A DNA stretch of 64,000 nucleotides from Escherichia phage fDHCT2. The notes under the pieces are model-generated. The model made no database searches and had not been told where the DNA came from. It saw nothing but the letters and a program-made list of their open reading frames with translations. A program made the position numbers and the translations under genes. This document shows positions 5,380 through 25,575 of the stretch, piece by piece; the stretch's first letter is position 1; each line of letters begins with the position of its first letter. The stretch lies in the sequence record OR427838.1; one strand, given 5' to 3'.

Positions 5380-5394
5380 ACTTTTTTGCACTAA

Positions 5395-5420
5395 ACCCAA
5401 AAAAGGACCCCGAAGGGTCC
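5395..5420 (-). terminator. rho-independent terminator (GGACCCTTCGGGGTCC + U-run on minus strand)
   Basis: GC hairpin with UUCG loop followed by T-run in transcript sense. Confidence 0.6.
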
Positions 5421-5644
5421 TAAATTGCGCTCCAATAATTATGGAAGCGGATATTATTGATAGCCCAGTTAATACAACGTCTTATCTGCTTAGTCGTAGG
5501 CTTGCATACGTACTTGAAATTGATTCTTCTACCGGTTTCTCTACAAACTACTTCAAGATACCAACGACAGGTTTTATGAGGTCTTCCATATGACAGGAAA
5601 ACCTTGATTTCTTCTTTAACGGTAATAAGAGTTGTGGTTGTCAA
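5420..5644 (-). CDS. small Cys-rich protein (74 aa)
   Basis: ORF between NTase gene and terminator hairpin; weak. Confidence 0.35.
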   Translation of the reverse strand: MTTTTLITVKEEIKVFLSYGRPHKTCRWYLEVVCRETGRRINFKYVCKPTTKQIRRCINWAINNIRFHNYWSAI

Positions 5645-8611: not shown

Positions 8612-8640
8612 ATAGTATCACGTTCCTAGAGGATGTAAAT
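8612..8640 (-). promoter_or_regulatory. early promoter (-35 ATTTAC, -10 TACTAT)
   Basis: Conserved module upstream of ORF 8347-8583. Confidence 0.6.
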
Positions 8641-8649
8641 ACCTAAACG

Positions 8650-8676
8650 AAAAAAGGTCCCACCGAAGTGAGACCT
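8650..8676 (-). terminator. rho-independent terminator after rI.-1
   Basis: Hairpin GGTCTCACTTCGGTGGGACC + U-run on minus strand. Confidence 0.6.
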
Positions 8677-8680
8677 TTGA

Positions 8681-9064
8681 TTATTCTAACGTTAACAAAT
8701 ATTTAGTCTGGTAAAAGACCCCAGTGATATCGTCCAAAGTCGACTGGATGGCCTTAGGAAGGGTAACATAGATTTTATCAGATGCTTTAAGAAGCTCGTC
8801 AAGGAAATCTACAGGGTCCTTAGGCAAGTCTGAAGCAGACGGTAATGATGCTTTATATTCTTTGCCACTGAATCCAAGATATTGCTCACTAAATTGGTCC
8901 AGCGGTCCTTGAACTTCTACATAATAGAAGTCATACGCTTTGTGTCTTGCATAGCTTTTGGTTTCTAAATGGGCTGACTTAAAATAGGCTAAAGAAACCA
9001 GTAGCCAACCAATATAAGAATCCACTTCAGACCCTCGACCGGGTACGAAATCATTGAACTTCAT
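8681..9064 (-). CDS. rI.-1-like protein (127 aa)
   Basis: Position immediately before rI as in T4; terminator hairpin follows at 8650-8676. Confidence 0.5.
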   Translation of the reverse strand: MKFNDFVPGRGSEVDSYIGWLLVSLAYFKSAHLETKSYARHKAYDFYYVEVQGPLDQFSEQYLGFSGKEYKASLPSASDLPKDPVDFLDELLKASDKIYVTLPKAIQSTLDDITGVFYQTKYLLTLE

Positions 9065-20927: not shown

Positions 20928-21158
20928 TTAGCAAGACATAGAGGAGTTAAACCAGAAACCCTGGCCATCATTGATACCGTAATCACTGCGAATCCAGTCA
21001 TATTCTTCGTATTCTTCGCTAGAAGCCGGAATATAACGCTGGAAACGGTCTGCGGCGTGTAAATTAAAAATTTCGCCGGTTTTATCGGCCAGCTGCTCAC
21101 CTTCACAGATTAGTGCACGGATTTGGTCTTCGATTTCTTTAACAGTTTTAGAAGTCAT
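20928..21158 (-). CDS. paralog-array member 4 (C-terminal ...FWFNSSMSC)
   Basis: Tandem paralog with shared C-terminal motif. Confidence 0.55.
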   Translation of the reverse strand: MTSKTVKEIEDQIRALICEGEQLADKTGEIFNLHAADRFQRYIPASSEEYEEYDWIRSDYGINDGQGFWFNSSMSC

Positions 21159-21167
21159 TTTATTACC

Positions 21168-21365
21168 TTAGCATTCGTAAGAGGAGGACACCCAAGAGGT
21201 ACCACTAATTGTAATACAACCATTATAAAGCGTGATATGACGTTCCAGGTCACGAACACCGTCGATATAGATATCAGCTTCTTCGCGTTCTTCTTTACAA
21301 ATCTGGATAACGTTTTCAATAGCTGCGGCTGCAGTACGGATTGCACAATCTAGTTCACGAGACAT
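21168..21365 (-). CDS. paralog-array member 3 (C-terminal ...SWVSSSYEC)
   Basis: Tandem paralog with shared C-terminal motif. Confidence 0.55.
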   Translation of the reverse strand: MSRELDCAIRTAAAAIENVIQICKEEREEADIYIDGVRDLERHITLYNGCITISGTSWVSSSYEC

Positions 21366-21374
21366 AATAATTCC

Positions 21375-21656
21375 TTAACATTCAGAAGAAGAGGATACCC
21401 ATCCACCATTTTCTAGGCTGGTAGTGTAATCATGTTGGTTTACAATAGCGTACTGAGCTTCACCGTATTCTTCCCAGTGGGCCAGGTCAGCTTTCAAGGC
21501 GCCAGGAGAATAATAGTCACCGCCCATACCGCGAGCAGGGTATATATTAAAATGAGTCTCATATTTGTTGGCAATTTCCTCGGCACGACGAATAGCTTTA
21601 TGGATATCATTTACTGCAGCAGCCAGCTCTTTATTTTTACGGTAATCATTCATCAT
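21375..21656 (-). CDS. paralog-array member 2 (C-terminal ...GGWVSSSSEC)
   Basis: Tandem paralog with shared C-terminal motif. Confidence 0.55.
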   Translation of the reverse strand: MMNDYRKNKELAAAVNDIHKAIRRAEEIANKYETHFNIYPARGMGGDYYSPGALKADLAHWEEYGEAQYAIVNQHDYTTSLENGGWVSSSSEC

Positions 21657-21665
21657 AGCGTTTCC

Positions 21666-21956
21666 TTAGCACATTGCCGAAGAGGAGACCCAAGCACCAA
21701 CTGTAACGACGCCATTTTCAACTTCACCACCATTGTTTTCAATTTCATCTTTAAACCACTGGGAGCATTCATAACCAACAGGGTAGTATGTACGTCCTGA
21801 GCCATAATCACCTGTTCCGAATTGAATACCGTACTTATCGGCAATAGCTTCACATTTGGATTCGATGGTATCCACTTTATTCAGAAGAGCATAGATAGCC
21901 TTTTCTGCAGATTTCTCGTCATTGTATTCAGGGATTTCAATTTCAATTTTATTCAT
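21666..21956 (-). CDS. paralog-array member 1 (C-terminal ...GAWVSSSAMC)
   Basis: Tandem paralog with shared C-terminal motif. Confidence 0.55.
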   Translation of the reverse strand: MNKIEIEIPEYNDEKSAEKAIYALLNKVDTIESKCEAIADKYGIQFGTGDYGSGRTYYPVGYECSQWFKDEIENNGGEVENGVVTVGAWVSSSAMC

Positions 21957-24305: not shown

Positions 24306-24334
24306 ATAGTATCATGTTCTACGAAAGAGTAAAC
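24306..24334 (-). promoter_or_regulatory. early promoter
   Basis: GTTTAC-17-TACTAT plus conserved downstream block. Confidence 0.6.
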
Positions 24335-24357: not shown

Positions 24358-24386
24358 CAAAAAAGGCCCAACCTTTCGGAAGGGCC
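24358..24386 (-). terminator. terminator hairpin (GGCCCTTCCGAAAGGTTGGGCC + U-run)
   Basis: Hairpin plus T-run in minus-strand sense. Confidence 0.55.
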
Positions 24387-24476
24387 TAGAATCAGTTCTT
24401 GTAGAACCGGAATGGGTTTATGTGGAAGGCTAACATAGCTTTTATTTTAAAAGTTTCATATATTTCTCTAAGTTAA

Positions 24477-24499
24477 CCAAAAAAGCCCCAGACGGGGCT
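24477..24499 (-). terminator. rho-independent terminator after IP-like gene 24504-24968
   Basis: AGCCCCGTCTGGGGCT + UUUUUU on minus strand, directly after stop. Confidence 0.7.
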
Positions 24500-24503
24500 T
24501 TCG

Positions 24504-24968
24504 TTATTTGATTTGTTTAGCAGACCAGATACGGTCTTTGATGATTTTCTGAATATCTTCAACATACTCTAAGTCGTGAGCATGCGGATTATCTTTGAAG
24601 CTATGTGCTCGTGCCAGTTTCTGGCCTTCTGTTTTGATTACTAAAAGCTCTTTAAGAATTGCTTCATACTTAGAAATGATTCCTTTAGCGATATTTTTTT
24701 CTTGAGCGGCTTTAGGGTCCGCTTTTGACGCAGGTGCTTTACCTGTAGCTTTCTGGAACAATTCACCTGATGCAGCTAGGCTTTTAAAAACTCGGCTAAC
24801 AGTATTAGCATTAGTAAAACCTTCGGCTTTAAAATCTTTAATAAAACGGAAACGTTCTTCATCAGAGGCGTCTTTGTAAGAATATTTACCTGCTTGAATT
24901 GCTGCAATCGCGGCGGCTTTTACATCTGAACTAGATTGTTCGGTCAAAAATTCATTGTAAGTTTTCAT
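24504..24968 (-). CDS. internal-protein-like head protein with CTS (MKTYNEFLTE), 154 aa
   Basis: N-terminal CTS; gene flanked by hairpin terminators at 24477-24499 and 25009-25037. Confidence 0.65.
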   Translation of the reverse strand: MKTYNEFLTEQSSSDVKAAAIAAIQAGKYSYKDASDEERFRFIKDFKAEGFTNANTVSRVFKSLAASGELFQKATGKAPASKADPKAAQEKNIAKGIISKYEAILKELLVIKTEGQKLARAHSFKDNPHAHDLEYVEDIQKIIKDRIWSAKQIK

Positions 24969-25008
24969 TATTATTTCCTAAGTTAATTAACTTATCTATT
25001 TATTATGC

Positions 25009-25037
25009 CAAAAAGCCCCAACCTTTCGGAAGGGGCT
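25009..25037 (-). terminator. terminator hairpin (AGCCCCTTCCGAAAGGTTGGGGCT + U-run)
   Basis: Near-identical to hairpin at 24358-24386. Confidence 0.55.
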
Positions 25038-25130
25038 ATGCCTTGCGGTAACCTTGTCGGGGTTCCACCTGCTAGGCAAGTGTTTGTACGAAACGCCAGG
25101 ATTCGAACCCGGTTATTAAGCAGTTGACGC
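25036..25130 (-). ncRNA. tRNA-like element or small stable RNA (T-arm CCGGG-TTCGAAT-CCTGG present, no complete cloverleaf found)
   Basis: Canonical T-loop on minus strand in a noncoding stretch next to the tRNAs; acceptor pairing not found by hand. Confidence 0.3.
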
Positions 25131-25418
25131 TACTCAATATTTTTAAAAGGCCATATCTCGACCATATCCGAACGTTCCGTCAAAAACGCTACTCGGCTTA
25201 CGGCAAAGATATTTCCTCGAATCGATAATTAGGTGCGCCGTTTCTGCTGTGATGTAAGGGGACATTAACAGATCGTAAAGATTTGTTAATGCCAGTCCTT
25301 ACTCAGGGAACATCAGTCCGACGACTTACCGGTAGCGACCCGGTTTCTTGTTTGTTGCGCCGGTGAATGCTGGTAATCAGTCTTCATACGACGGCTTGAC
25401 TATATAATAGTCTTCATT

Positions 25419-25493
25419 TGGTATCCCGCCCTGGGATCGAACCAGGACCGCAAACTTAGAAGGATCGTATGCTATCCATTACACCAGCGGGAC
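25419..25493 (-). tRNA. tRNA-Arg (anticodon UCU), CCA encoded
   Basis: Manual fold: acceptor GTCCCGC/GCGGGAT, D-loop AATGGATA, anticodon loop CTTCTAA, T-arm CCTGG-TTCGATC-CCAGG, 3' ACCA. Confidence 0.75.
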
Positions 25494-25498
25494 ATAGT

Positions 25499-25575
25499 TG
25501 GTGACCCGGACCAGATTTGAACTGGTAACCTTTCCCTTATGAGGGGACTGCTGCTAACCATTGAGCTACAGGGCC
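25499..25575 (-). tRNA. tRNA with anticodon CAU (Met or lysidine-modified Ile), CCA encoded
   Basis: Manual fold: acceptor GGCCCTG, D-loop AATGGTTAG, anticodon loop CTCATAA, T-arm ACCAG-TTCAAAT-CTGGT, 3' ACCA; one acceptor mismatch. Confidence 0.65.

Follow-up and report, generated by a model that had tools for sequence, protein, structure and literature searches.

Duplicated terminator hairpins as probable recombination joints for small accessory-gene cassettes in T4-type phages

Two near-identical hairpins with the predicted form of intrinsic terminators enclose a variable interval downstream of the rnaC homologue of Escherichia phage fDHCT2, and as direct repeats they probably act as recombination joints for small accessory-gene cassettes. 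The analysis was performed on one stretch of 64,000 nucleotides (64 kb; sequence record OR427838.1), referred to below as the window, whose source is a T4-like Dhakavirus; over the surrounding 2.5 kb, the sequence is 95–97% identical to phages UGJNEcP3, WG01, QL01 and PSD2002. All genes of the region lie on the minus strand, and the features are listed in transcription order in Table 1. The locus is a further example of the known T4-type gene shuffling via terminator/promoter motifs and represents no new kind of mechanism. It provides a clean sequence-level case of T4-type phages trading small accessory genes, here for putative anti-defence proteins that would be injected and for a membrane protein with no assigned role, in which a terminator of ~30 nt would double as regulatory signal and recombination joint. 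With filled and empty alleles at three sites in two genera, it also offers a natural test system for the frequency of such exchanges and the machinery behind them.

Table 1. Features of the variable locus and its flanks, in transcription order (positions in the window)
Feature	Position	Strand	Details
tRNA-Arg(TCT) and tRNA-Met(CAT)	25419–25575	−	tRNA-Arg 100% identical to T4 tRNA-Arg
rnaD homologue (T4 species 2 RNA)	25232–25348	−	89% identity
rnaC homologue (T4 species 1 RNA)	25087–25225	−	97.8% identity; conserved flank upstream of hairpin B
Hairpin B	about 25010–25038	−	stem GCCCC-UU-CC, loop GAAA, GG-UU-GGGGC, then U5
Late-promoter-like octamer AATAAATA	24997–25004	−	matches 7/8 of T4 TATAAATA; putative function
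IP-like gene, 154 aa	24504–24968	−	phrog_2280
Terminator of IP-like gene	about 24479–24501	−	AAAGCCCC-GUCU-GGGGCUUU, then U-run
DUF7338 relic, 68 nt	24392–24459	−	first 17 nt and last ~51 nt of a 184-aa gene
Hairpin A	about 24359–24388	−	stem GGCCC-UU-CC, loop GAAA, GG-UU-GGGCC, then U6
T4-type early promoter GTTTAC-N17-TACTAT	24306–24334	−	A-rich upstream stretch; directly past hairpin A
T4 e.8 homologue, 87 aa	24007–24270	−	83% nucleotide identity to T4 e.8

A preliminary description of the window had proposed two near-identical hairpin repeats, and it was right on both the likeness and the fold. The direct repeat spans 29 nt (24360–24388 and 25010–25038) with 27/29 positions identical (93%), and the two differences together make one compensatory swap of a stem pair between G–C and C–G (GGCCC..GGGCC in copy A, GCCCC..GGGGC in copy B). 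At this pair, G–C was found in 9/16 and C–G in 6/16 distinct hairpin variants. The 18-nt core CCCAACCTTTCGGAAGGG is present in the 64 kb window in exactly two exact copies (24367–24384 and 25017–25034), compared with a chance expectation of 0.02 matches, and no further copy was found in the whole window at up to three mismatches. The longest unbroken identity between copies A and B is 31 nt in MX01-type phages and only 18 nt in the window, so that exchange in the latter may be rare.

The preliminary description had missed that the hairpins act on the minus strand. When this strand was folded, GC-rich hairpins directly followed by a run of U5–6 were obtained at the 3′ ends of transcription units past rnaC, past the IP-like gene and past the DUF7338 relic; the two repeat copies gave −16.0 and −18.2 kcal/mol (z about −2.4 to −2.6), and the remaining one −15.4 kcal/mol. 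By these models A and B are predicted to have the form of intrinsic terminators, with GC stem, GAAA loop and U-run, and they would presumably terminate transcription in vivo; the homologous hairpins in SA21RB carry the annotation rho-independent terminator. They share a GC-rich stem, a GNRA (GAAA) tetraloop and a U-run with intrinsic terminators in general, including that of T4 rnaC, and differ in that their sequence is duplicated at cassette borders. A further difference is a tandem U·U (T·T/A·A) mismatch in the Dhakavirus, Mosigvirus and Gaprivervirus versions, at a place where T4 and SA21RB are paired; it was retained in 13 of the 16 distinct variants, across three genera. A literature search for the T4 rnaC terminator found nothing, and with Rfam at a permissive threshold only two tRNAs were matched, the hairpins and the rnaC and rnaD homologues giving no match.

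Hairpin B is the predicted terminator of the tRNA–rnaD–rnaC unit and, judged by sequence comparison, the upstream border of the variable interval. Its T4 counterpart, located about 50 nt past rnaC, agrees in position and is homologous in sequence; the hairpin is kept beside rnaC in T4, T2, T6 and RB14, and the homology of the window to those phages ends at the hairpin edge. Hairpin A is likewise the predicted terminator of the now-deleted DUF7338 gene and appears to form the downstream border, with the e.8 homologue as the first conserved gene beyond. The tRNA cluster that had been pointed out near the repeats is present as a tRNA-Arg and a tRNA-Met gene; the rnaC and rnaD homologues, which had been overlooked, lie between it and hairpin B. 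Between rnaD and tRNA-Arg there are an extra ~70 nt (25349–25418) that T4 lacks. Close relatives differ in the cluster: in IME341 an endonuclease gene separates tRNA-Arg from tRNA-Met (locus L004, 3303–3962), JS10 (locus L006, 3360–3592) and IME08 have an additional tRNA-Asn, and rnaC is mostly gone in JS10, MX01 and IME08.

The interval between the repeats had been taken to hold a single gene. It encloses the IP-like gene, the separate terminator hairpin of that gene, which had been recognized and is real, and the relic of a deleted 184-aa gene, which had been missed. Intact, the latter gene encodes a membrane protein (Pfam DUF7338, E = 6e-63; phrog_2143) and is found in UGJNEcP3, QL01, JS10, MX01 and JS98. 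The relic was formed by a 487-bp internal deletion common to the window, PSD2002 and IME341, with a microhomology of merely 2–4 nt, and now reads M-K-L-L-K-stop. The 90-nt gap that separates hairpin A from the terminator of the IP-like gene is a dead gene and not a regulatory region, a caution for annotators. That the hairpins bracket the IP-like gene alone was ruled out by UGJNEcP3, which carries the 184-aa gene intact. Nucleotide matches of 72–76% to the middle of the DUF7338 gene were also obtained in many Felixounavirus (FelixO1-like) phages (e.g. MN850587.1 and NC_031939.1), which indicates that the gene circulates beyond the T4-like family; in some records it is labelled 'holin'.

The 154-aa open reading frame with an internal-protein (IP)-like leader was confirmed. 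Its N-terminus, MKTYNEFLTE, aligns with the leaders of the window's own ipI-like protein, of T4 IpI, of the SA21RB homologue and of other IP-like genes. The leader of T4 internal proteins ends in a prohead-protease site (L/I-x-E), and MKTYNEFLTE resembles a capsid-targeting leader with an L-x-E protease site. Residues 1–44 gave a weak match to phrog_7857 'internal virion protein' (E = 6.8e-4); a Pfam search with the protein gave no match, and phrog_2280, to which it belongs, is a PHROGs family of unknown function. The conserved capsid-targeting sequence is all that T-even internal proteins share (PMC3012670). The label 'IP-like' is reasonable but unproven; late expression, packaging into the head and processing would be expected of an internal protein.

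Its counterparts in UGJNEcP3, PSD2002 and IME341 are 98–99% identical to it and that in the Tequatrovirus SA21RB about 78%; in SA21RB a perfect-stem form of the hairpin flanks the homologue and a second gene with an MKTY leader comes next. Its borders differ in kind. On the 5′ side are hairpin B, the late-promoter-like octamer, placed only 40 nt ahead of the ATG, and the conserved leader; the exact TATAAATA occupies the octamer position in PSD2002, QL01, JS98 and C6. On the 3′ side there is a different terminator, unrelated to hairpins A and B save for a common CCAAAAAGCCCCA stretch.

For comparison with relatives, the sequence modules were mapped onto their rnaC-to-e.8 loci, and six contents were distinguished within Dhakavirus. 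In state 0 (empty; ABTNLS3 and FB, with T4 similar), a single hairpin is followed by the early promoter. State 1 (MX01, JS10) consists of hairpin, TATAAATA, DUF7338, hairpin and early promoter, and state 2 (C6, IME08) of hairpin, TATAAATA and a different IP-like gene of 205 aa with a UUCG-loop terminator. State 3 (JS98, KIT01, NC-G) has hairpin, DUF7338, hairpin and the 205-aa gene. State 4 (UGJNEcP3, QL01, ABTNLsp5, vB_EcoM_005) has hairpin, IP-like 154-aa gene with its own terminator, DUF7338 and hairpin; state 5 (window, PSD2002, IME341) is like state 4 with DUF7338 gutted. A literature search for the rnaC–e.8 locus in JS98/JS10 phages found nothing.

State 1 differs from state 0, and state 3 from state 2, by the DUF7338 gene plus one hairpin (623 nt). 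In ABTNLS3 and FB the whole inter-repeat segment is absent. Against the window, ABTNLS3 gave one BLAST segment running leftward from about 24387–24388 and one running rightward from 25010, and on ABTNLS3 the two share precisely the 28 nt of the hairpin. Its single hairpin is a hybrid, flanked on the rnaC side as copy B is and on the side of the e.8 promoter as copy A is; FB is arranged likewise. The same was found in another genus at another locus. In the Mosigvirus phage LF82-16, rI is followed by a hairpin, TATAAATA, a DUF7338 homologue, a second hairpin, an early promoter and mobD.2a; in RB69, one hairpin and an early promoter lie between rI and mobD.2a. The BLAST segments of the two overlap by the 29-nt hairpin at the rI/mobD.2a junction. 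The 623-nt unit is present or absent in three contexts, two in Dhakavirus and one in Mosigvirus, and the hairpin duplication goes with DUF7338, where the IP-like gene had been supposed. In the Gaprivervirus UPEC01 the DUF7338 gene has a hairpin upstream only. The proposal of a recombination-delimited cassette thus survives as regards the varying contents and the single hybrid hairpins of ABTNLS3 and FB, with the unit itself wrongly drawn.

The upstream border was also surveyed more widely. The hairpin-B region matched 804 phage records, from which a spread sample of 60 was scored: 29 were colinear, 19 ended their homology at query 154–161, the edge of hairpin B (T4, T2, T6 and RB14 among them, with rnaC as the feature under the match), and eight ended it at query 90–97, the end of the conserved IP leader. 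A near-identical 'head' comprising hairpin, late promoter, 5′UTR and ATGAAA precedes three different genes, namely DUF7338 (JS10, MX01, KIT01), the IP-like 154-aa gene (QL01, PSD2002) and the 205-aa gene (C6, JS98). A triple hairpin in phage 04086, in which hairpin B occurs twice, each time with ~115 nt from the start of the IP-like gene and at a distance of 209 bp (locus L003, 3507–3735), was considered as a tandem duplication and rejected, the NNN at its joint making it a probable assembly artefact.

From the repeats and their folds, and from where the joints and hybrid hairpins of relatives lie, the following scheme is proposed. Copy B would end transcription of the tRNA–rnaD–rnaC unit; copy A would have ended that of DUF7338, and sits directly ahead of the e.8 early promoter. 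Direct repeats of 29–31 nt would supply homology for the phage's own recombination/replication machinery, the exchanges being by homologous recombination and not by a dedicated enzyme. An exchange between the two copies would delete the interval and leave one hybrid hairpin, possibly with release of a small circle as an intermediate. By the reverse exchange, a cassette could be inserted at any resident copy of the hairpin. The window would then be a compound, partly decayed product of such exchanges. The 487-bp deletion in DUF7338 and the 3′ joint of the IP-like gene lie off the hairpins, so that other mechanisms also act at the locus; the downstream side of the 205-aa gene is a further joint away from them.

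These off-hairpin joints would suit an account, which we consider unlikely, in which the hairpins are terminators and nothing else, alike by descent or by convergence on a stable GAAA-loop design, with joints placed there by selection and the hairpin passive. Selection for intact transcription units could alone enrich joints in intergenic hairpins. Such an account would also accommodate a core that recurs in some 23 unrelated lineages of viruses as a hairpin flanked by an A-run, and a further Dhakavirus copy in a stable context. It fits poorly with four independent comparisons of filled and empty alleles (three sites, two genera), in which the joints lie inside the 28–31 nt repeat and have hybrid flanks, and with the finding that each DUF7338 insertion compared adds exactly one hairpin copy. 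The other terminators in the window are moreover unrelated in sequence to hairpins A and B. The preliminary description had itself suggested comparing the locus across related genomes and had named ordinary terminators with no link to gene content as the outcome that would speak against a cassette. The comparison indicated that the hairpins are, by their form, ordinary intrinsic terminators as well, hairpin B being the conserved putative rnaC terminator of T-even phages, but that they are linked to differences in the contents of the interval.

The further copy just mentioned has the form of a plain terminator and lies in Dhakavirus genomes where uvsW.1 and uvsY.-2 converge, in a stable context outside the window (locus L062, 4240–4270, in QL01; likewise L029, L032, L056 and L065). 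The hairpin is thus not always tied to variation. In IMG/VR, the mismatched 18-mer CCCAACCTTTCGGAAGGG was found in 63 stretches of viral contigs, which represent some 23 lineages unrelated to each other, and nearly every copy had an A-run 5′ of it (loci L009–L071 and L079–L094, together with the perfect-stem versions).

The imperfect stem might instead mark a structure-specific site, comparable to an integron attC, at which a dedicated enzyme of phage or host would cut or exchange the DNA; the DUF7338 cassette would then be a mobile element that targets the hairpin. Retention of the tandem U·U mismatch in most variants would agree with this, as would the 63 stretches with the imperfect core against 10 and six with the two perfect-stem versions, a count that is confounded by oversampled lineages and from which no enrichment is claimed. 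In a degenerate control scan no AA/AA case was present among the matches listed. It was also once suggested that a targeted pathway underlies T4 deletions at GGGC/GCCC inverted repeats (Mosig 1998, as cited in PMC2839356). We regard this explanation as very improbable, since no gene for a recombinase, integrase or transposase lies within the cassette or next to it and ~30 nt of plain homology suffices in a recombination-proficient T4-type phage. That the hairpin is more than passive homology, namely a structure-specific insertion site with a conserved tandem mismatch, and that the DUF7338 cassette hops between terminators (rnaC, rI) of different T-even genera is a long shot; if true, lytic phages would have something like an integron cassette system, though with no integrase dedicated to it. 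By analogy, integron attC arrays would share with the locus the promoterless or simple single-gene cassettes, the imperfect hairpin repeats and a possible circle; the locus differs from them in that an integrase is missing, in that the repeats are near-identical in sequence and not in structure alone, and in that every cassette comes with a promoter and a terminator of its own.

SegB-like homing endonucleases from the tRNA region are another conceivable source of the variation, through double-strand-break repair with co-conversion of the flanks and with the hairpins as bystanders. T4 segB is located there, IME341 and LHE83 carry an endonuclease gene in the tRNA cluster a few hundred bases away, and such enzymes are a second source of plasticity according to Comeau 2014 (PMC4122927). 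The probability of this reading was nevertheless judged to be very small: no endonuclease gene is present in this region of the window, co-conversion yields graded tracts and not indels bounded by a duplicated 29-nt repeat, and an indel bounded in the same way by the hairpin is also found in Mosigvirus, at rI.

Recombination between repeated terminators, the preferred explanation, has close precedent in the PeSLs (promoter-early stem-loops) of T4-type phages, in which a terminator-like stem-loop stands immediately ahead of an early promoter. RB49 ORF192 lies between two PeSLs where phi1 has a single chimeric PeSL, and circles were detected by inverse PCR (Arbiol, Comeau and Krisch 2010, PMC2839356). 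The model was extended to T4/PST and KVP40/nt-1 with IP loci named explicitly, and the PST/T4 PeSL promoter consensus was given as TTTACW-N17-TAYWAT (PMC4122927). In the window, the stem-loop of hairpin A (24365–24386) ends 30 nt before the −35 hexamer of a promoter (aaaaagtttaaaaaagatGTTTACT-N17-TACTAT, 24334–24306) that fits this consensus, and a Shine–Dalgarno sequence and start codon follow downstream (GAAGGAGAGTAAAATG of e.8); hairpin B has a stem-loop too. As in the published cases, repeated elements flank indel ORFs in a hyperplastic region and a single chimeric element occupies the empty site (window, MX01 and KIT01 against ABTNLS3, FB, C6 and IME08; LF82-16 against RB69).

There are two differences from a PeSL. 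The homology between A and B is limited to the stem-loop and U-run (about 29–31 nt), whereas the published PeSL crossovers were mapped in the promoter-to-ATG part. Copy B precedes a late-promoter-like element of the TATAAATA type and not an early promoter, and for this reason only copy A is a strict PeSL. PeSLs are present in many copies per genome, concentrated in hyperplastic regions. The early-promoter part itself recurs at seven other places in the window and at 7–10 places per relative genome; this particular hairpin occurs in two copies in the window and in 2–3 per genome. Eleven matches to TTTACW-N16–18-TAYWAT were counted on the minus strand of the window, and two more composites of PeSL layout, with unrelated UUCG-loop hairpins, lie at ~8640–8700 and ~5380–5440 (−).

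The classical T4 IP sites are those of ipI (beside 57B) and of ipII/ipIII (beside e); the site described here, in contrast, lies between rnaC and e.8. It otherwise resembles the T-even IP loci as they are cited from Repoila et al. (1994), in which diverse genes share only an MKTY-EF-x-E leader and genes are swapped between relatives at sites bounded by conserved regulatory sequence. The homology of some relatives to the window stops exactly at the leader end, and PeSL-like elements have been noted at T-even IP loci (PMC2839356, PMC4122927).

Elsewhere in the window, four tandem paralogous ORFs of 76, 65, 93 and 96 aa were observed at 20928–21956 (−). They belong to phrog_899 and phrog_4882, of unknown function, and all four have an invariant C-terminal W-x-x-S-S-x-x-C.
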